Shown: positions 1-43,891, counted from the first letter of the stretch. The stretch: 64,000 nucleotides of DNA from an uncultured Jannaschia sp. (GCF_947494025.1 NZ_CANLTQ010000003.1:128069-192068); one strand, 5' to 3'. The notes: a model not told the origin generated them from the sequence alone. Numbers and translations are program-made.

Positions 1-1056
1 GAGGAGGCGGTCGGTTCCAGCGGCGTCGCCGACGCTCATTCGCAGGCAATGCGGCAGGCCGTAGCTTCGCGGATGCCGGACGATCACGCCGCGCGACCTG
101 AGGAACGCGTCGCATCCGGCGGCCTCCGTCTCGTCGCCGAAGCGCGCCAGCACGAAGTTCGCCTCCGACGGATCCGACGGGATGCCGAGGGCGGTCAGCC
201 CCGCGCGCAGCCGCGCCCGCTGCCGGGCGTTGTCGGCCCGGCACATCGCGACGAAGTCCCGGTCGCCCACCGCCGCCTCCGCCGCGGCGAGCGCGACGCT
301 GGAAAGGTTGAACGGCCCTCGCACGCGGTTCAGCACGTCGATCACCTCGCGCGGGCCGTAGCCCCAGCCGACGCGCATCCCGCCCAGCCCGTACATCTTG
401 GAGAAGGTCCGGGTGGCGAAGACGTTCGCCCGCGTGCCGGCGAGGTTCAGCCCGCCGTCGAAATCCTCGGCGAACTCGGCATAGGCCCCGTCGAGCACCA
501 GCAGGCAATCCCCCGGAAGCCCGTCGGCCAGCCGCACGAGATCCTGCCCGCCCAGAAGCGTGCCGGTCGGGTTGGCCGGGTTGGCGATGAAGACGAGACG
601 CGTCCGCTCCGTCGCCGCGTCCAGAAGCGCGTCCACGTCCACGCGGCGGTCCCGTTCCGGCGCGGAGACGGGCACGGCCCCGGCCGCCCGCGCGCTGATG
701 GCGTACATCAGAAAGCCATGATGCGTGTGCAGCACCTCGTCGCCCGGCCCCGCGAAGCACTGGCACAGGAGGTGGATGATCTCGTCGGAGCCCACGCCGC
801 AGACGATCCGGTCGGGGTCGAGCCCGTCATGCACCTCCGCGATCGCCGCCCGAAGGCTCGCGTGGTCGGTGTTCGGATAGCGGTTCATCTCCGCCAGTGC
901 CGCCTGTGCCGCCGCCATCGCGGCGGGGGAGGGGCCGTGCGGGTTCTCGTTCGACGAAAGCTTCACGACGTCCGCGACGCCGTCGACTTTCGAGGCGCCA
1001 CCCTGGTAGAGTTCGATCTCCATGATCCCCGGCTGGGGCGCGGGTGCGGCGCTCAT
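1..1056 (-). CDS. hisC: Histidinol-phosphate aminotransferase (3' end runs off the window)
   Basis: Not in the ORF track because its stop lies outside the window. Manual reverse translation from ATG at 1056 gives [31 protein letters not shown] and the PLP-lysine motif [18 protein letters not shown]. The frame is open to position 1. Confidence 0.9.
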
Positions 1057-1153
1057 CTGTGATCCCCCGAATGCGTCGCGCCGTTCTATTCGGGCCGGCG
1101 GGGCCGGGGCAATGGCGCCGCCCCGTCTTTGCTTCGGAAATATCCCGGGATGC

Positions 1154-1173
1154 GCGAAGGGCCGGCCCTTCGC
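1154..1173. terminator. Perfect 20-bp palindrome just downstream of priA; probable terminator or stem-loop
   Basis: GCGAAGGGCCGGCCCTTCGC is its own reverse complement and lies 9 nt past the priA stop. There is no strong U-tract. Confidence 0.5.
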
Positions 1174-1181
1174 TCCGCCGT

Positions 1182-3380
1182 TCAAAGGAAGCTCTGCGGG
1201 TCGATATCGATGCTGAGCCGGGTCGAGCGGGGGATCTCGATGGCGCCCACCCAGGCCGCCAGCGCCGGCTGGATCGGCGCCTGCCGCGGCGCCTTCACCA
1301 GAAGCCGCACGCGGTGGCGGCCGCGAATGCGCGCGATGGGCGCGGGGGCGGGGCCGTAGACCTCGGCCCCCACGTCTTCCAGCATGGCGGCCCGGCGGGC
1401 GAGCGCGCGGCCCACGTCGAAGGCCACGTCCGCCGCCGGGTCGGAGATCACGATGCCCGCCATGCGCCCGTAGGGCGGCACGCCCGCCGCGCGGCGCTGT
1501 TCCGCCTCCTCGCGCAGGAACGCCTCCTCGTCGCCCGACAGGATCGCGCGGATCACCGGATGCTCGGGCTGCCAGGTCTGCAACAGGGCCTCGCCCGGCC
1601 GCTCCGCCCGTCCGGCCCGCCCCGAGACCTGCCGCATCAGCTGGTAGGTCCGCTCGGCGGCGCGCAGGTCGGAGCCCTGCAGCCCGAGATCCGCGTCGAT
1701 CACGCCGACCAGGGTGAGGTGCGGGAAGTTGTGCCCCTTCGCCACGAGCTGCGTGCCGACGACGATGTCGGCATGGCCCGCCGCGATCTCCTCCACCCGT
1801 GCCTTGAGCGCCCGGGCGGAGCCGAACAGGTCCGACGACAGGATCGCCACGCGCGCCTCGGGGAACAGGCCCGACACCTCCTCGGCCATGCGCTCCACGC
1901 CCGGGCCGACCGCGGCGAGCTTGCCCTCCACCCCGCAGGAGGGGCAGGCCGGCGGGACGGGCGCGGTCGCGCCGCATTGGTGGCACATGAGCTCGCGGCG
2001 GAAGCGATGCTCCACCATCCGCGCGTCGCAATGCCGGCAGGCGATCTGCTGGCCGCAGGCGCGGCACAGCGTGACCGGCGCGTAGCCGCGGCGGTTGAGG
2101 AAGACGAGCGACTGCTCGCCCGCCGCCAGACGCCCGGCGATCGCCCCCCGGAGCCGCGGCGAGATCCAGCGCCCCGAGGGCAGGTCCGCCTCGCGCATGT
2201 CGATCGTGGCGAGGCGCGGCAGCACCGCATCGCCGTAGCGCGAGGAAAGGTCGAGGCGGGCGTATTTCCCGGCCTCCGCGTTGGCCCAGCTTTCGAGCGA
2301 GGGCGTGGCGGAGGCGAGCACGACCTGCGCGCCCTCGCAGTTCGCCCGCAGGACGGACATGTCGCGGGCGGAATACAGCACGCCGTCCTCCTGTTTGTAG
2401 GAGGTGTCGTGCTCCTCGTCGACGACGACGAGGCCGAGCTCGCGGAACGGCAGGAACAGCGCGGAGCGCGCGCCGACGATCAGCCGCGCCTGCCCGTCCG
2501 CGGCCTTTTTCCACGTCCGCCGCCGCTCGGCCTGGGTGACGCCGGAATGCCATTCGGCGGGCCGCGCGCCGAACCGCGCCTCCACCCGCGTGAGGAACTC
2601 CGCGGTCAGCGCGATCTCCGGCAAGAGGACCAGCGCCTGCCGCCCGCGGGCGAGGCATTCGGCGACGGCCTCCAGATAGACCTCGGTCTTGCCCGAACCG
2701 GTGACCCCCCGTAGAAGCGTCGTGCGGTAGCCTCCCGCGGCGAGACCCGCACGCAGCGCGTCCGCCGCCGCGGCCTGATCCTCCGCCAGCGGCTTGCCGG
2801 GCCGGGACGCGTCGAGCGGCGGAAAGTCGGCGTCGCGCGGGCGGACAATCTCCCGCACCGCGCCCGAGGGCAGGAGTCCCTTCACCACACCGGTCGAGAC
2901 CCCGGCGAGGTCGGCCAGCTCCGACAGGGCGAAGACGTCGTCGGGCCGCTCGTCCAGAAGCGCCAGCACCTTCTCGCGCGCCGGCGTCATCCGGTCCGGC
3001 GCGCCGTCGCCCGCCCGGTAGACGCTGCGCCGCCCCTCCGCCCCGCCGAGGCCGGGCGCCCGCAACGCGAGCCTGAGCATCGCCGGCAGGGGGGTGAGCG
3101 TGTAGGCCGCCGCGCGTTCGACGAAGTCGCGGAACGGGCGGGCCATCGGCGGCACGTCGAGCACGCGGGCGATGCCGCGCAGCTTCTCGACCGGCCAGTC
3201 CCCCGCCGCCGGGCCCCAGACCACGCCCAGCACGAGGCGCGGCCCGAGCGGCACCTCCACGACGGCGCCGTCGGCCACGCCGCCCGCCGGCGCGCGGTAG
3301 TCGAGCGCGCGGTCCAGCGGCTGCGTCGTCTGCACGGCCACCGGCGCGCCGGGAGGATGGAGCGTCGCCATGGCCCCCAT
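1182..3380 (-). CDS. priA: Primosomal protein N' (replication restart helicase)
   Basis: Walker [17 protein letters not shown] motif II, Cys-rich CRACG..CRHC..CHQCG..CPSC zinc region, [12 protein letters not shown]. Start placed at ATG 3380 (3371 possible). Confidence 0.96.
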
Positions 3381-10732: not shown

Positions 10733-10758
10733 GGAACCGCCGGGCCGGGTGCGACGTT
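10733..10758 (+). promoter_or_regulatory. Sigma-EcfG (general stress response) promoter
   Basis: GGAAC-N17-CGTT, an exact match to the alphaproteobacterial EcfG consensus, 38 nt upstream of the GlsB/YeaQ gene. Confidence 0.7.
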
Positions 10759-27492: not shown

Positions 27493-28794
27493 ATGCTGCG
27501 CGCTCTCGCTATCCTGTCCGCCCTGTCCGCCCTGTCCGCCAACGCGATGGAGTTCCCCGCGCCCGTCACCGACGACGCCTACCGCGCAACGGACCCGGCG
27601 CGGGTGAAGATGGGGCGGCTTCTGTTCTGGGATCCCATCCTGTCGGGCAACCGGGAGCTCAGCTGCGGCACCTGCCACCATCCGCGCTTCGGCACGTCCG
27701 ACGGGCTGTCGCTCGGCTTGGGCGACGGGGGGCGGGGGCTCGGACCCGACCGCGCGGTCGATCCGGCGAACGCGCCGGAGGAGCGGCTGGCGCGCAACGC
27801 GCCGGGGCTGTGGAACCTCGGCGCGCACGAGTTCTCGGTGCTGTTCCACGATGGCCGGGTGGAAGCTCTGGGGGACGGGTTCCGCACCCCGATGGGGACG
27901 GAGATGGTGGAGGGATTCGACTCCGTCCTGTCCGCGCAGACCATGTTCCCGGTCTTGGCCGACGACGAGATGGCGGGGCACTACGCCGAGAACGAGGTCA
28001 GCCGCGCCGTCCGCAAGGGCGAAATCACGGGCCCGGGCGGAGCGTGGGGCCTGATCGCGGCGCGTGTTCAGGCGGTTCCCGGCTATGTGGAGATGTGGCG
28101 CGATGCCTTCCCGGGCGACGACGCGCTCGACTTCACCGACGTCTCCGACGCCGTCGCCGCCTTCGTGGAGCATGAATGGCGCTCCGACGCGTCGCCCTTC
28201 GATGCCTGGCTCCGGGGCGAGGACGCGCTCTCGCCCGACGCCCTGACGGGGGCGGAACTGTTCTACGGCGAGCTCGGCTGTGCCGGCTGCCATTCCGGTC
28301 CCTTCCTCACCGACCACGACTTCCACGCCACCGGCCAGCCGCAGCTCGGCCCCGGCAAGCGGGCGCGGTTCGAGAGGCATGCGCGCGACGAGGGGCGGAT
28401 GCGTGTGACCGGCGCGGCCGCCGACCGCTTCGCCTTCCGCACGCCGTCGCTGCGCAACGTGACCGAAACCGGCCCCTGGGGCCATGCCGGCGCCTACGAC
28501 GACCTGCGCGCCTTTCTGGCCGACCACGCCGCGCCGCGCCGGGCGCTCGCGGATTATACGTGCAAGAGCGTACTGCCGGAGATGGGCGACGGGGCGCGGG
28601 ACTGGGCGTTCATGGACGACCCGGCGGAGGTCGCCGCGCTCGCCGCCGCCATCGAAGGACCGGACCGCGTGCTGGCGGAGGGGGAGATCGAAGCGCTGAT
28701 GGCGTTCCTCGCGGCGCTGCGCGACGAGGCGGCAATGGCCGGGCGGCTGGGCATTCCGGACGCCGTGCCCTCCGGCCTGCCGGTGGATCGCTGA
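27493..28794 (+). CDS. Diheme cytochrome c peroxidase/MauG superfamily protein with atypical ligands
   Basis: Signal peptide, two CxxCH motifs (CGTCH, CAGCH), RNAPG..N, Q-x3-P-x5-EM, FRTPSLRNV..TGPWGHAG. See finding for the substitutions. Confidence 0.88.
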   Translation: MLRALAILSALSALSANAMEFPAPVTDDAYRATDPARVKMGRLLFWDPILSGNRELSCGTCHHPRFGTSDGLSLGLGDGGRGLGPDRAVDPANAPEERLARNAPGLWNLGAHEFSVLFHDGRVEALGDGFRTPMGTEMVEGFDSVLSAQTMFPVLADDEMAGHYAENEVSRAVRKGEITGPGGAWGLIAARVQAVPGYVEMWRDAFPGDDALDFTDVSDAVAAFVEHEWRSDASPFDAWLRGEDALSPDALTGAELFYGELGCAGCHSGPFLTDHDFHATGQPQLGPGKRARFERHARDEGRMRVTGAAADRFAFRTPSLRNVTETGPWGHAGAYDDLRAFLADHAAPRRALADYTCKSVLPEMGDGARDWAFMDDPAEVAALAAAIEGPDRVLAEGEIEALMAFLAALRDEAAMAGRLGIPDAVPSGLPVDR

Positions 28795-40783: not shown

Positions 40784-41380
40784 CTAGCGGATCCGCGGGA
40801 TCTGCGGTGCCGCGTCCATCGGGATGGTGCCGTCGAGGCGCGGATCCTCCACGACCTCCACTTCGCGACGCACGGGAACGAAGCCCGAGCGGATGTAGAA
40901 GGGCAGCGCGACCGGGCTGTCGAAGGTGCAGGTGTGGATGTGCAGCCGCGCGATGGGCCGCGCGAAGGCGCGGGCGATCCCGGCCTCGATCAGCGCCCGT
41001 CCCGCACCCTTGCTCTGCGCGGCCGGGGCGAGGCCCAGAAAGGCCAGCTCGCAACTCTGCTCGTCGCGGAAGTCGAGCTCCAGAAGCCCCTCCGCCCGTC
41101 CGTCGATTTCGAGCGCGAAGACCTCCACATCCGCATCCGCAAGGATCGCGGACAGCTCCGTCCGCGACAAACGCAAGCGCGAGAACCACATCCAGTTGAG
41201 CCCGCCTACGCGAAGGAACAGATCGCGGTACCAGTCCGGATCCGGCGCCGCGACCCGGCGCAGTGTCATGCCGGCCGGCATGGCGGCATCGAGCGAAGGG
41301 GGCGGAGCGCGCATCTCCAGATGGGTGACGACGGCCGCGATGTGGCCGGGGCCTATGGAATGGAGACCGGGTTCGAGCAT
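40784..41380 (-). CDS. GNAT family N-acetyltransferase
   Basis: VVTHLEM, WYRDLFLRVG..WMWFSR, LAFLGL..QSKGAGRALI, HTCTFDSPVALPFYIRSGF. Confidence 0.86.
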   Translation of the reverse strand: MLEPGLHSIGPGHIAAVVTHLEMRAPPPSLDAAMPAGMTLRRVAAPDPDWYRDLFLRVGGLNWMWFSRLRLSRTELSAILADADVEVFALEIDGRAEGLLELDFRDEQSCELAFLGLAPAAQSKGAGRALIEAGIARAFARPIARLHIHTCTFDSPVALPFYIRSGFVPVRREVEVVEDPRLDGTIPMDAAPQIPRIR

Positions 41381-41452
41381 CGATCATGGAGTTAGAGGAT
41401 GCCGGGCCGGGATACCAGCACCGGCGAGCGAGACGCCGGGACCGTGATCGCT

Positions 41453-41839
41453 TCAGGAAAGGTCGATGGCGTAGCGCCGCAGCACCTCCCTCGGCACGAT
41501 TTCGAGCGTTCGCTCGTGCGTGGCGGCCAGTCGGATGCGCGGCGCGGCCCCGTGCTCGTGGGCCTCGATGAATCGCGCGGCGCAAAGGCACCAGCGGTTG
41601 CCGGGCTGGAGGCCGGCGAAGCCGAATTCGGGCCGGGGCGTGCTCAGATCGTTGCCGCGCATTTTCGAGTACGCGAGGAACTCCTCGGTGACGACGGCGC
41701 AAACCGTGTGTACCCCCGCATCCATCGCGCCCGTGTTGCAGCATCCGTCGCGGAAGAAGCCCGTCATCGGCTCGGTCGAGCAGGTCTGGAGCCGCTCGCC
41801 GAGGACGCTCACGCTCGGTCGTTTCCCTGTTTCCGGCAT
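41453..41839 (-). CDS. DUF2237 family protein
   Basis: SVLGERLQTCS..PMTGFFRDGCC..GVHTVCA..GNDLSTP..GNRWCLCA.R..ATH. Confidence 0.88.
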   Translation of the reverse strand: MPETGKRPSVSVLGERLQTCSTEPMTGFFRDGCCNTGAMDAGVHTVCAVVTEEFLAYSKMRGNDLSTPRPEFGFAGLQPGNRWCLCAARFIEAHEHGAAPRIRLAATHERTLEIVPREVLRRYAIDLS

Positions 41840-41913
41840 GGCGTCGCTCCCTCTGCTATCGACCCTCGCCCTTTGACATAGCGCCGTCCCGCCGCGCCCG
41901 CCACGATCCCGGC

Positions 41914-42606
41914 CTAGCGGAACTTCCGGGCGAGCTTCTGGAGGGGGGAGAGGGTTTCCTCGGGCGCCGGCTCCGGGTCGGACGGGGCAGGGCGCTCGGT
42001 CGGGACCGAAGCCGCCGCCTTGCCGCCCGATGGACGCTGCGGTGTGGTGCGGAGCGCGACGGCGTTCGAGAAACCCGGTCCGTCGCCTGCCGCGAGCTTC
42101 GGCGCGCCGTCGACGATTCCGTGCAGCATGTCGTCGAGCATATCGCCCTCCGCCTTCGCGAAATCCGACAGGACGTAGCCCGAGACCCGGTCCTTGTGCC
42201 CCGGATGCCCGATCCCGATGCGAACGCGCGCGTAATCCGCGCCGATATGCTGATGGATCGAGCGCAGGCCGTTATGACCGGCATGCCCGCCCCCCTGCTT
42301 CAGGCGCAGCTTGCCGGGCGCGAGGTCGAGCTCGTCGTGGAACACCGTCACGTCGGCGGGTTCGAGTTTGTGGAAGCGCATCGCCTCGCCCACGGACTGC
42401 CCGGACAGGTTCATGAAGGTCCCGGGCTTCAGGAGCCAGACCTTTTTCGACCCGAACCGTACCTCGGCGATCTCGCCCTGGAACTTGGACCGCCAGACGA
42501 CGCCCTGATCCTCGGCGATGCGGTCGAGCGCCATGAAGCCCACATTGTGCCGGTTGTTCGCGTATTTCGCGCCCGGATTGCCGAGGCCCGCCCAGATCGC
42601 CGTCAC
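41914..42606 (-). CDS. pth: Peptidyl-tRNA hydrolase
   Basis: GLGNPG..YANNRHNVGF, KPGTFMNLSG, HDELD, GGHAGHNGLRSI, RIGIGHP. GTG start after an AGGAGG ribosome-binding site. Confidence 0.96.
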   Translation of the reverse strand: MTAIWAGLGNPGAKYANNRHNVGFMALDRIAEDQGVVWRSKFQGEIAEVRFGSKKVWLLKPGTFMNLSGQSVGEAMRFHKLEPADVTVFHDELDLAPGKLRLKQGGGHAGHNGLRSIHQHIGADYARVRIGIGHPGHKDRVSGYVLSDFAKAEGDMLDDMLHGIVDGAPKLAAGDGPGFSNAVALRTTPQRPSGGKAAASVPTERPAPSDPEPAPEETLSPLQKLARKFR

Positions 42607-42677
42607 CGCTTTCCTCCTGCCTTCGCCCGTCTCCTGCGACGCATGGTCCCGGCAACCGGATCCCGCGGTCGCAGAAA

Positions 42678-42702
42678 GGAACACCGGCGCTAGGATGGCG
42701 TT
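42678..42702 (+). promoter_or_regulatory. Sigma-EcfG (general stress response) promoter of dps
   Basis: GGAAC-N16-CGTT exact consensus, 36 nt upstream of ATG 42739. Confidence 0.72.
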
Positions 42703-42738
42703 CCACCTGCGACCGTGACAACTCCGAAAGCACAGCTT

Positions 42739-43278
42739 ATGCGCATCACGACCCCCATCGTCTGCCTTTGTCTCGCGATGCCGCTCCCGGCCCTCGCGCA
42801 GGACGGCTCGGATACGACGGACAACGTCCCCCTTGCCGAGGAGATCCGCGAGACGTCCACCACGGCGCTGCAGGACACGCTCTACGACCTGATCGCGATG
42901 AAGCACGCTGCCCATCAGGAGCACTGGAACGTCGTCGGCATCGAATACTACCAGATGCACGAGTTCTTCGGGGAGCTCTACACCGATCTCGGACCCTTCA
43001 TCGACATGGTGGCCGAGCGGAAACGCGCGCTCGACGTGATCGCCGACGGCCGGCCCTCCGCCGTGAGCGAGAACGCATCCATCGCCGAGCCGGAGCCGGC
43101 GGAGACGCAGGGCGCCGACGCCGTCGACGTCCTGATGGAGAACTGGAGCACCGTCTCCTACCTGATGTACGAGCGCATCGAGGCGACCGGGGACGATCTC
43201 GTGACGCAGGATCTTCTGATTGCCGTCACCGCCCTTATCGACAAGCAGCTCTGGCAGCTTCGCGCCCACACGAAATGA
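42739..43278 (+). CDS. dps: Dps family mini-ferritin with predicted N-terminal signal peptide
   Basis: HWNVVG..MHEFFGELY..IDMVAER ferroxidase signature, DLVTQDLL..IDKQLWQLRAH; N-terminus MRITTPIVCLCLAMPLPALA-QD. GTG 42715 is an alternative start. Confidence 0.88.
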   Translation: MRITTPIVCLCLAMPLPALAQDGSDTTDNVPLAEEIRETSTTALQDTLYDLIAMKHAAHQEHWNVVGIEYYQMHEFFGELYTDLGPFIDMVAERKRALDVIADGRPSAVSENASIAEPEPAETQGADAVDVLMENWSTVSYLMYERIEATGDDLVTQDLLIAVTALIDKQLWQLRAHTK

Positions 43279-43286
43279 AGCGACGC

Positions 43287-43313
43287 GGCGGGGGCCTGTC
43301 CAGGCCGCCCGCC
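43287..43313. terminator. Hairpin between convergent dps and NUDIX genes
   Basis: GGCGGG-GGCCTG-TC-CAGGCC-G-CCCGCC. Confidence 0.5.
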
Positions 43314-43315
43314 GG

Positions 43316-43891
43316 TCAGCCCGCCCGGCGCAGCGTGAAGGCCAAAATCAGGGCCACGGTCTTGGCATCGCGGATCTCGCCGCGCGCGATCATCTCCACC
43401 GCCTCCGCCGCGGGGACGTGCAGCACTTCGATATCCTCGCCTTCCTCCGCCGCGCCGCCGCCCGTGCCGGCCCGCTCCGTGCGCGTGTAGCGGCCGAGAT
43501 AGCAGGCGAGGGATTCGGTGACCGAGCCGGGCGACATCGCGAGGTCGGCGACGTGGTGGAGCGCGACGGCCTCGTAGCCCGTTTCCTCCATCAGCTCCGC
43601 GCGCATCCGCTCGACCGGCTCCGCCCCTTCGAGAAGCCCCGCCGGCACCTCGATCAGGAACGGGTCGAGCCCCGCGACCTGCATCGGCAAGCGGAACTGT
43701 CGCGTGAGCAGCAGGGTATCGCCGGCCGGGTCGTGCAGCAGGCAGGCCACCGCGTCGCCGCGGTCGTAGACCTCCCGCACCTGACGCTCGACCGTGCCGT
43801 CGCCACGGACGTAATCGAAGGTATGCCTCGTGAGCGTGCCCCACCCGTCCGACAGGACCTCCTGCGAGACGGGGCGGAAGCGTTCGCTCAC
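43316..43891 (-). CDS. NUDIX hydrolase, GDP-mannose/ADP-ribose pyrophosphatase (NudK-like)
   Basis: REVYDRG, LLTRQFRLP, Nudix box AGLLEG..RAELMEETG, EGEDIEV, IRDAKT. GTG start overlaps the pepF stop. Confidence 0.86.
   Translation of the reverse strand: MSERFRPVSQEVLSDGWGTLTRHTFDYVRGDGTVERQVREVYDRGDAVACLLHDPAGDTLLLTRQFRLPMQVAGLDPFLIEVPAGLLEGAEPVERMRAELMEETGYEAVALHHVADLAMSPGSVTESLACYLGRYTRTERAGTGGGAAEEGEDIEVLHVPAAEAVEMIARGEIRDAKTVALILAFTLRRAG

Follow-up and report, generated by a model that had tools for sequence, protein, structure and literature searches.

Dps proteins are usually treated as cytoplasmic protectors of the nucleoid. Dps2 of Deinococcus radiodurans, the only leader-bearing Dps to have been studied, has a predicted signal peptide and an experimentally supported extracytoplasmic location (PMC6300522, citing Reon et al., 2012), and iron sequestration and a role against exogenous reactive oxygen species (ROS) have been proposed for it (PMC6300522); where it resides is still argued. 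A literature search for periplasmic or exported Dps found only a Deinococcus review and no paper outside Deinococcus. Dps is also commonly part of the general stress regulon, and in the Alphaproteobacteria dps is commonly controlled by the sigma factor EcfG and serves as a reporter of the general stress response (GSR) (bioRxiv 10.1101/641647). Here, a dps-type gene is described from a stretch of 64 000 nucleotides of DNA of an uncultured Jannaschia sp. (GCF_947494025.1 NZ_CANLTQ010000003.1:128069-192068), referred to at its full length as the window. Its product is a Dps-type mini-ferritin of the Deinococcus Dps2 subfamily, as shown by its family matches, fold and ferroxidase ligands, and it probably acts as an EcfG-driven, Sec-exported iron/peroxide cage in the periplasm.

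EcfG control of dps and the architecture of the Dps2 clade are already known. What is added here is that the leader appears to define a coherent, cross-phylum Dps clade that includes Dps2, and that this clade seems to be EcfG-wired in the Alphaproteobacteria. Members of the clade occur in ordinary diderms with a true periplasm, and they therefore offer cleaner systems in which to settle where such cages work.

Dps fold, ferroxidase site and leader

The gene and the parts of its product are listed below; residue numbers refer to the product of 179 residues.

42739..43278, + strand: gene of dps type, read from the preferred ATG start through 179 codons to the stop codon at 43276-43278
42739..42798, + strand: predicted signal peptide MRITTPIVCLCLAMPLPALA, Sec/signal peptidase I type, with a predicted cut after A20 and before Q21 (from the -3/-1 rule, clade conservation and low model confidence)
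42799..42837, + strand: QDGSDTTDNVPLA (Q21-A33), the flexible, acidic tail with which the mature protein begins, with no Lys or Arg
42838..43275, + strand: residues 34-179, the four-helix bundle of Dps, including a short BC-loop helix (from the structure model and Foldseek)
42922..43017, + strand: ferroxidase-centre ligands H62 (42922-24, in HWNV), H74 (42958-60), D89 (43003-05) and E93 (43015-17), from the sequence
43189..43218, + strand: GDDLVTQDLL motif, of which D153, Q157 and D158 are invariant in the alignment

In profile searches the product matched the Pfam family Ferritin (PF00210; E 3.9e-14, 53.2 bits against a cut-off of 24.5), and its top NCBIfam match was the Dps equivalog NF006975, at 84.2 bits and below the 114-bit cut-off of that model, which indicates a Dps protein that is not of the E. 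coli type. The top sequence match in the PDB was D. radiodurans Dps2 (2C2J/6TGT; E 1.2e-15). An AlphaFold2 (AF2) model of the monomer, made with 26 homologues in the alignment, had a mean predicted local distance difference test (pLDDT) score of 89, with residues 31-179 at 92-99 and residues 1-30, which lay outside the fold, at about 51-54. The model comprised helices at residues 34-64, 70-97, 106-112 (the short BC-loop helix typical of Dps), 125-149 and 154-178. When it was compared with the PDB by Foldseek, the best 50 matches were all Dps proteins, and 2C2J ranked first with a root-mean-square deviation of 1.0 Å over 143 columns and 31 % identity. Dps2 is thus the best match in both sequence and fold, and its orthologue shares a clade with the window protein (see below), in agreement with a preliminary description, made from the sequence alone, that had drawn the comparison with Deinococcus Dps2.

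The same description had reported intact Dps ferroxidase residues, and all four ligands were indeed found, His, His, Asp and Glu being spaced 12/15/4 along the chain; we take this to be the spacing of H51/H63/D78/E82 in E. coli Dps. H62, H74 and D89 were invariant in the homologue alignment. Going by other Dps sequences, the GDDLVTQDLL motif presumably belongs to the acidic three-fold pore through which iron enters Dps cages.

The N-terminus has the anatomy of the Sec-type leader that had been proposed for it (R2 and an ALA-QD cleavage site), and the homologues keep it. Within M1-A20, R2 is the sole charge and residues 3-20 form a run of 18 uncharged residues; Pro occupies -6 and -4, Ala -3 and -1, and Gln +1, so that the predicted cut follows A18-L19-A20 and precedes QDGSD. 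A18 and A20 conform to the -3/-1 rule that classically describes signal peptidase I sites. Two other kinds of signal were considered and rejected. A twin-arginine translocation (Tat) signal would need the S/T-R-R-x-F-L-K motif, which is absent, R2 being the single Arg, and most clade members likewise have one Lys or Arg. As to a lipoprotein signal, C9 and C11 lie in the h-region, where no lipobox precedes them, and they lack conservation, the homologues P0005 and P0006 having A or L there; the mature chain is Cys-free.

The mature chain has 159 residues, including four Lys, six Arg and 30 Asp plus Glu, and an isoelectric point (pI) of 4.25. The acidic, Lys-poor composition given in the preliminary description was therefore correct, but the argument drawn from it was not. 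The genome holds two more Dps genes (L087, G000:C1:397237-400650; L088, G000:C1:217335-220751), both leaderless, and their products are acidic too (pI 4.7 and 5.1; eight and four Lys). Acidity is uninformative as evidence against DNA binding, since the leaderless paralogues are equally acidic.

A leader-bearing clade of Dps proteins

Homologues were sought in a collection of 5.8 billion proteins and by an exhaustive search of 1.84 billion representatives. In the former, the closest homologues, down to 42-44 % identity, all had a similar N-terminus, and Streptomyces Dps, the group that came next at 38-39 % identity, began at the ferritin core. Conservation of the signal peptide among homologues, a check that had been proposed earlier, was thus found in place of relatives starting at the core. 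At E<=1e-30 the exhaustive search gave 12 clusters, a number that rose to 207 at E<=1e-10.

A tree was reconstructed after the leader columns had been removed, so that it used the mature domain alone; it came from a quick search over 147 columns and contained many unresolved forks. Leaders were called by rule, using our own heuristic that scores the N-terminal extension for a hydrophobic window. Fifty of the 53 leader-bearing Dps fell in one clade of 53 rows, with support of 80 in the Shimodaira-Hasegawa-like approximate likelihood ratio test (SH-aLRT). An inner clade of 49 rows (SH-aLRT 94), which holds the window protein, consisted of 46 leader-bearing and three apparently leaderless rows. 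The leader label changed seven times on the tree, compared with about 40 times in shuffles. The leaderless rows in the clade include P0038, whose leader is borderline or truncated, and P0071, the orthologue of D. radiodurans Dps2 (E 1.7e-56), which lies inside the clade but at an unresolved fork and which, as called, begins where residue 41 of the crystallised Dps2 chain lies.

The full His-His-Asp-Glu ligand set (HHDE) was present in 43 of the 50 exported-clade members and in 72/72 other Dps. The remaining seven leader-bearing proteins (P0015, P0016, P0018, P0019, P0032, P0035 and P0057, six of them in one subclade) carry Ala in place of the Glu ligand (HHDA), a change found in none of the 72 leaderless Dps. 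This suggests that not every member of the clade depends on the ferroxidase site, whereas the window protein keeps it. Loss of the ligand in part of the clade would also be in keeping with proteins that are exported but have a mainly structural or envelope role, such as peptidoglycan association, in place of iron/peroxide detoxification. There is a precedent for such a role in NapA of Borrelia burgdorferi, which is found in the periplasm in association with peptidoglycan and contributes to the integrity of the envelope (PMC8118282). For the window protein we consider this unlikely, since all four ligands and the GDDLVTQDLL motif are retained, and since NapA is without a Sec signal and its structure (2PYB) is only a weak match (E 8e-5).

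Within the clade, the n-region was net-positive in 46/50 members and the uncharged stretch had a median length of 17 residues (14-21). The predicted cleavage site had Ala at -3 in 29/47, Ala at -1 in 39/47 and Gln at +1 in 39/47. The sequence of the h-region drifts within the clade while the pattern of charges and the A-x-A before Q persist, A-x-A/Q being the best-conserved feature of the N-terminus. A drifting h-region combined with kept charges and A-x-A/Q points to selection on a cleaved export signal and not to a random extension. From the predicted cut to helix A, the tails of the clade had a median length of 25 residues and on average 0.36 Lys and 3.9 Asp plus Glu.

These features also bear on the possibility that the hydrophobic N-terminus is a tether that holds the cage on the cytoplasmic membrane, with proteolysis of the tail freeing a soluble form, as in the Dps2M/Dps2C model for D. 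radiodurans. For Dps2, a member of the same clade as the window protein, a form fixed to the membrane by the N-terminal tail has been described, most of the protein being in the membrane fraction, together with a tail-less soluble form in the cytosol (Santos et al., 2019; PMC6868200). What the clade conserves, on the other hand, is the set that belongs to a cleaved Sec leader, namely a positive n-region, 14-21 uncharged residues, small residues at -3 and -1, with Gln following at +1, for which a plain anchor would have no need, and the positive-inside rule places the Dps domain outside the membrane. Moreover, the twelve N-termini of a Dps cage point outward all round, and they could presumably not all enter one membrane. 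We regard tethering as rather improbable.

The exported type was rare among related genomes. It was found in one of 24 other species of the genus (G216, apparently Jannaschia sp. W003; 67 % identity, at a different locus). Of 200 further genera of the family none had it, and among 400 genomes from the class there was one carrier (38 % identity). The named carriers, Jannaschia, Palleronia, Parvularcula and Salinisphaera, are marine or salt-loving.

A probable EcfG promoter and its regulon

Upstream of the gene, the two elements of a predicted EcfG promoter match the motif GGAAC-N16-CGTT exactly.

42678..42682, + strand: -35 element GGAAC of the predicted EcfG promoter, exact match
42699..42702, + strand: -10 element CGTT, exact match, after a spacer of 16 nucleotides

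The motif, which the preliminary description had already pointed out, occupies 42678-42702, begins at -61 from the ATG and ends 36 nucleotides before it. At the genome-wide rate, the chance of finding it in a given upstream stretch of 100 nucleotides on the right strand was about 1e-3. The genome (4.4 Mb in 216 contigs) contained 89 exact matches, compared with about 53 expected from base composition. Of these, 56 were classed as intergenic with a crude mask based on GC content at third codon positions (GC3), which covered 62 % of the genome, so that this count is indicative only.

The regulators of the response are encoded in the same genome. NepR (PF18557) was detected above its cut-off, at 50 bits, in a profile search of the genome, and the PhyR-like protein (sigma-like domain plus receiver), the extracytoplasmic function (ECF) sigma factor and the sensor kinase were assigned by reading the open reading frames next to nepR. 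A copy of GGAAC-N16-CGTT lies in the phyR-nepR intergenic spacer, before nepR. A second exact motif was present in the window itself.

G000:C1:201439-204540 (locus L001): general-stress locus, with a PhyR-like gene at about 543-1360 (- strand), nepR at 1462-1626, an ECF sigma gene at 1623-2192 (overlapping nepR by 4 nucleotides) and a membrane sensor kinase gene
10733-10758 (window): second exact EcfG motif, GGAAC-N17-CGTT, 38 nucleotides before the gene (start 10797, end 11057) for an 86-residue membrane protein of the GlsB/YeaQ/YmgE-type Transgly_assoc family

Genes found behind the motif encode DUF892, Pyrid_ox_like, PRC-barrel, DUF326, Transgly_assoc (GlsB/YeaQ-type), DUF3140, BrkB/YihY, holin-X-like and CBM48 glycosidase proteins, families which we take to be typical of alphaproteobacterial general stress regulons.

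Before orthologous dps genes, the motif was exact or had one mismatch in seven of eight distinct alphaproteobacterial loci, at -58 to -64 and once at -114. It was exact in L084/85 (metagenomic, 82 % identical to the window protein) at -61, in L093 at -60 and in L094 at -114. A change of one base in the -10 element was seen in Jannaschia sp. W003 (L082/L091, GGTT, -58), L083 (GGTT, -61), Palleronia aestuarii (L002, CCTT, -64) and L095 (TGTT, about -63). The genes upstream of dps at these loci are unrelated (pth, Gfo/Idh/MocA, the phosphoglycerate mutase iPGM, hydantoinase and a murein enzyme), and conservation of the motif is therefore tied to dps. No clear EcfG motif was found before dps in the non-alphaproteobacterial loci (Salinisphaera L003 and L096), as expected.

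A fortuitous match, with another sigma factor or regulator, for example one responding to peroxide or iron, driving the gene, was also weighed. The motif is short and its exact matches in the window are not above chance, the -10 element is non-consensus in several orthologues and no motif was seen in Parvularcula, and the members outside the Alphaproteobacteria must use other promoters. Against this, the position near -60 is kept across loci that share no upstream gene, no sigma-70-like promoter was found in 42400-43500, the regulator genes are present and the regulon looks typical. Coincidence thus seems a poor explanation, and GGAAC-N16-CGTT at 42678-42702 is very probably, from these comparisons, a real EcfG promoter. 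The general-stress control suggested earlier gains support from the regulator genes and from the retention of the motif before orthologues.

The leaderless paralogues differ in their upstream regions. L087 has a near-EcfG motif, GAAAC-N17-CGTT, at -60, and upstream of L088 a sigma-32-like CTTGGAA ... CCCATAT was read by eye. Each of the three Dps genes may respond to a stress regulator of its own.

The start codon

Both candidate starts named in the preliminary description are present, the ATG at 42739 (179 residues) and, in frame upstream, a GTG.

42715..42717, + strand: alternative in-frame GTG start, giving 187 residues by adding MTTPKAQL; less likely

Ten Pfam-checked genes behind EcfG motifs in the same genome had a median distance of 34.5 nucleotides from CGTT to the start codon. 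The ATG lies 36 nucleotides past CGTT and the GTG only 12, and the homologues begin at the MR... position, that of the ATG. On these two grounds the ATG was preferred and the GTG judged an unlikely start. Since the GTG would only lengthen the n-region, the conclusion about the leader is independent of the choice. An in-frame start codon 24 nucleotides before the MR... start is a GTG in the window (MTTPKAQL) and an ATG in the 82 %-identical orthologue L084 (MPTRNIQI), and there is none in L083; initiation may be dual, at 42715 and 42739.

That the protein is an ordinary cytoplasmic Dps whose start has been set too far upstream, translated for instance from M14 without a leader, is very unlikely: an in-frame ATG (M14) does lie within the leader and the Shine-Dalgarno sequence before both upstream starts is weak, but homologues do not keep M14 and have L or A there, the frame before it is open and leader-like in cluster representatives, about 50 in number, of several phyla, and the distance of 36 nucleotides from promoter to ATG fits that of the other motif genes.

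Neighbouring genes

The dps gene is monocistronic and lies between the divergent pth (peptidyl-tRNA hydrolase) and a convergent Nudix hydrolase gene; none of the nearby genes (pth, Nudix hydrolase, M3 peptidase, DUF2237 and GNAT) is iron-related. The GNAT - DUF2237 - pth string to the left of dps (window 40784-42606) is syntenic with L083:1-2874, the locus of a 61 %-identical metagenomic orthologue, where DUF2332 is added. The Nudix gene to the right is kept in the window and in L084/85 and is absent from L083.

43282..43317, + strand: GC-rich stem-loop, a possible terminator, where the convergent genes dps and Nudix meet, -33.6 kcal/mol

As an intrinsic terminator this stem-loop was rejected, being not significant against shuffles (z = -0.78) and without a U tract. 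Foreign origin of dps was likewise considered from base composition: its GC content is 64.6 % against 70.9 % for the window, but its GC3 (89 %) equals that of its neighbours. The preliminary description had also suggested that the protein acts with a periplasmic diheme enzyme. The diheme bCCP/MauG gene (27493-28794) lies 14 kb away and has no exact EcfG motif, and with nothing connecting it to dps this partnership was dropped.

In three unrelated loci the exported dps lies 18-66 bp downstream of a gene for a Gfo/Idh/MocA oxidoreductase.

L082:1940-2935: Gfo/Idh/MocA gene before the exported dps of Jannaschia sp. W003
L086:1937-2935: Gfo/Idh/MocA gene before the exported dps of Parvularcula dongshanensis
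L096:3753-4982: Gfo/Idh/MocA gene before the exported dps of a metagenomic contig

The three proteins are mutually 28-32 % identical, and the one in L096 has a twin-arginine signal (TRRKFF). The adjacency seems too frequent for chance. The genome of the window also encodes a Gfo/Idh/MocA oxidoreductase with a Tat signal (G000:C2:182418-183685; 413 residues, MPKPDLSRRGFLHS...), 40 % identical to the one beside dps in L096, and an exact EcfG motif, GGAACAGTCGGGGCGCCGGCCCGTT, precedes its gene. The exported oxidoreductase and the exported Dps may be co-regulated in this genome.

Proposed mechanism

Transcription from the EcfG promoter would cause the protein to be made when the PhyR-NepR-EcfG response is on. 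The precursor, with its 20-residue Sec signal peptide, would be translocated unfolded across the inner membrane, and signal peptidase I would cut after A-L-A20 to leave an N-terminal Gln. The mature protein would then assemble into the usual 12-subunit cage in the periplasm, where Fe(II) would be oxidized with H2O2 at the inter-subunit sites (H62, H74 / D89, E93) and stored as a mineral core, removing both Fenton reactants from the cell envelope. The two leaderless paralogues would serve the cytoplasm. We infer export, the cleavage site, cage assembly, the periplasmic chemistry and the dependence on EcfG from the comparisons above.

Several points weigh against this mechanism. To our knowledge, no Dps cage has been shown to assemble in a periplasm. 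The localization of D. radiodurans Dps2 itself is disputed, with the membrane-attached and cytosolic forms described above, and seven of the 50 leader-bearing Dps have lost the Glu ligand. For the promoter, the two exact motifs in the window compare with 0.91 expected, a count that is not significant by itself, the -10 element departs from CGTT at its first base or bases in L082, L083, L002 and L095, and no clear EcfG motif was found before dps in the Parvularcula locus L086.

Taken more widely, the leader-defined branch, which extends across the Alpha- and Gammaproteobacteria, Deinococcus and metagenomic lineages, may represent periplasmic iron-storing nanocages of diderms that are EcfG-wired in the Alphaproteobacteria and may work with exported Gfo/Idh/MocA oxidoreductases, a generalization towards which we lean, with some reserve. 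If the protein is periplasmic, an iron cage of 12 subunits can form from Sec-exported chains, and bacteria would buffer Fe(II) and H2O2 in the envelope within the general stress programme. Such buffering would be relevant to marine bacteria, which meet photochemical peroxide and scarce iron.

Comparison with known Dps systems

The Dps of Agrobacterium tumefaciens (1O9R; E 5.3e-11) is, like the window protein, alphaproteobacterial, and the title of its PDB entry states that it protects DNA without binding it. Its residue 13 of 162 aligns with residue 35 of the window protein, which leaves no room for a leader, and it is, as far as we know, cytoplasmic.

B. burgdorferi NapA (BicA) shares the Dps fold, has been shown experimentally in a diderm periplasm and is not DNA-binding (PMC8118282). 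It differs in lacking a Sec signal and in having no known export route (PMC8118282), and in being distant in sequence.

The EcfG-controlled dps genes of the Alphaproteobacteria, for example the GSR reporter of Erythrobacter litoralis DSM 8509, resemble the window gene in lying directly behind an EcfG motif. We know of no export signal described for their products. This EcfG-controlled cytoplasmic type is presumably represented in the genome by the leaderless paralogues.

D. radiodurans Dps2 (DR_B0092; PDB 2C2J, 2C6R, 6TGT) differs from the window protein in several respects. The two are only about 31 % identical, the envelope of D. radiodurans is different and it has no EcfG system. The window protein's N-terminal region is far shorter, its core starting from residue 34 and aligning to about residue 43 of the 2C2J chain. 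The dps2 gene adjoins the radS/radR two-component genes (PMC6300522), whereas the window gene has a predicted EcfG promoter. In sequence and in fold, Dps2 is nevertheless the closest of these systems, being the top match of the window protein in both.

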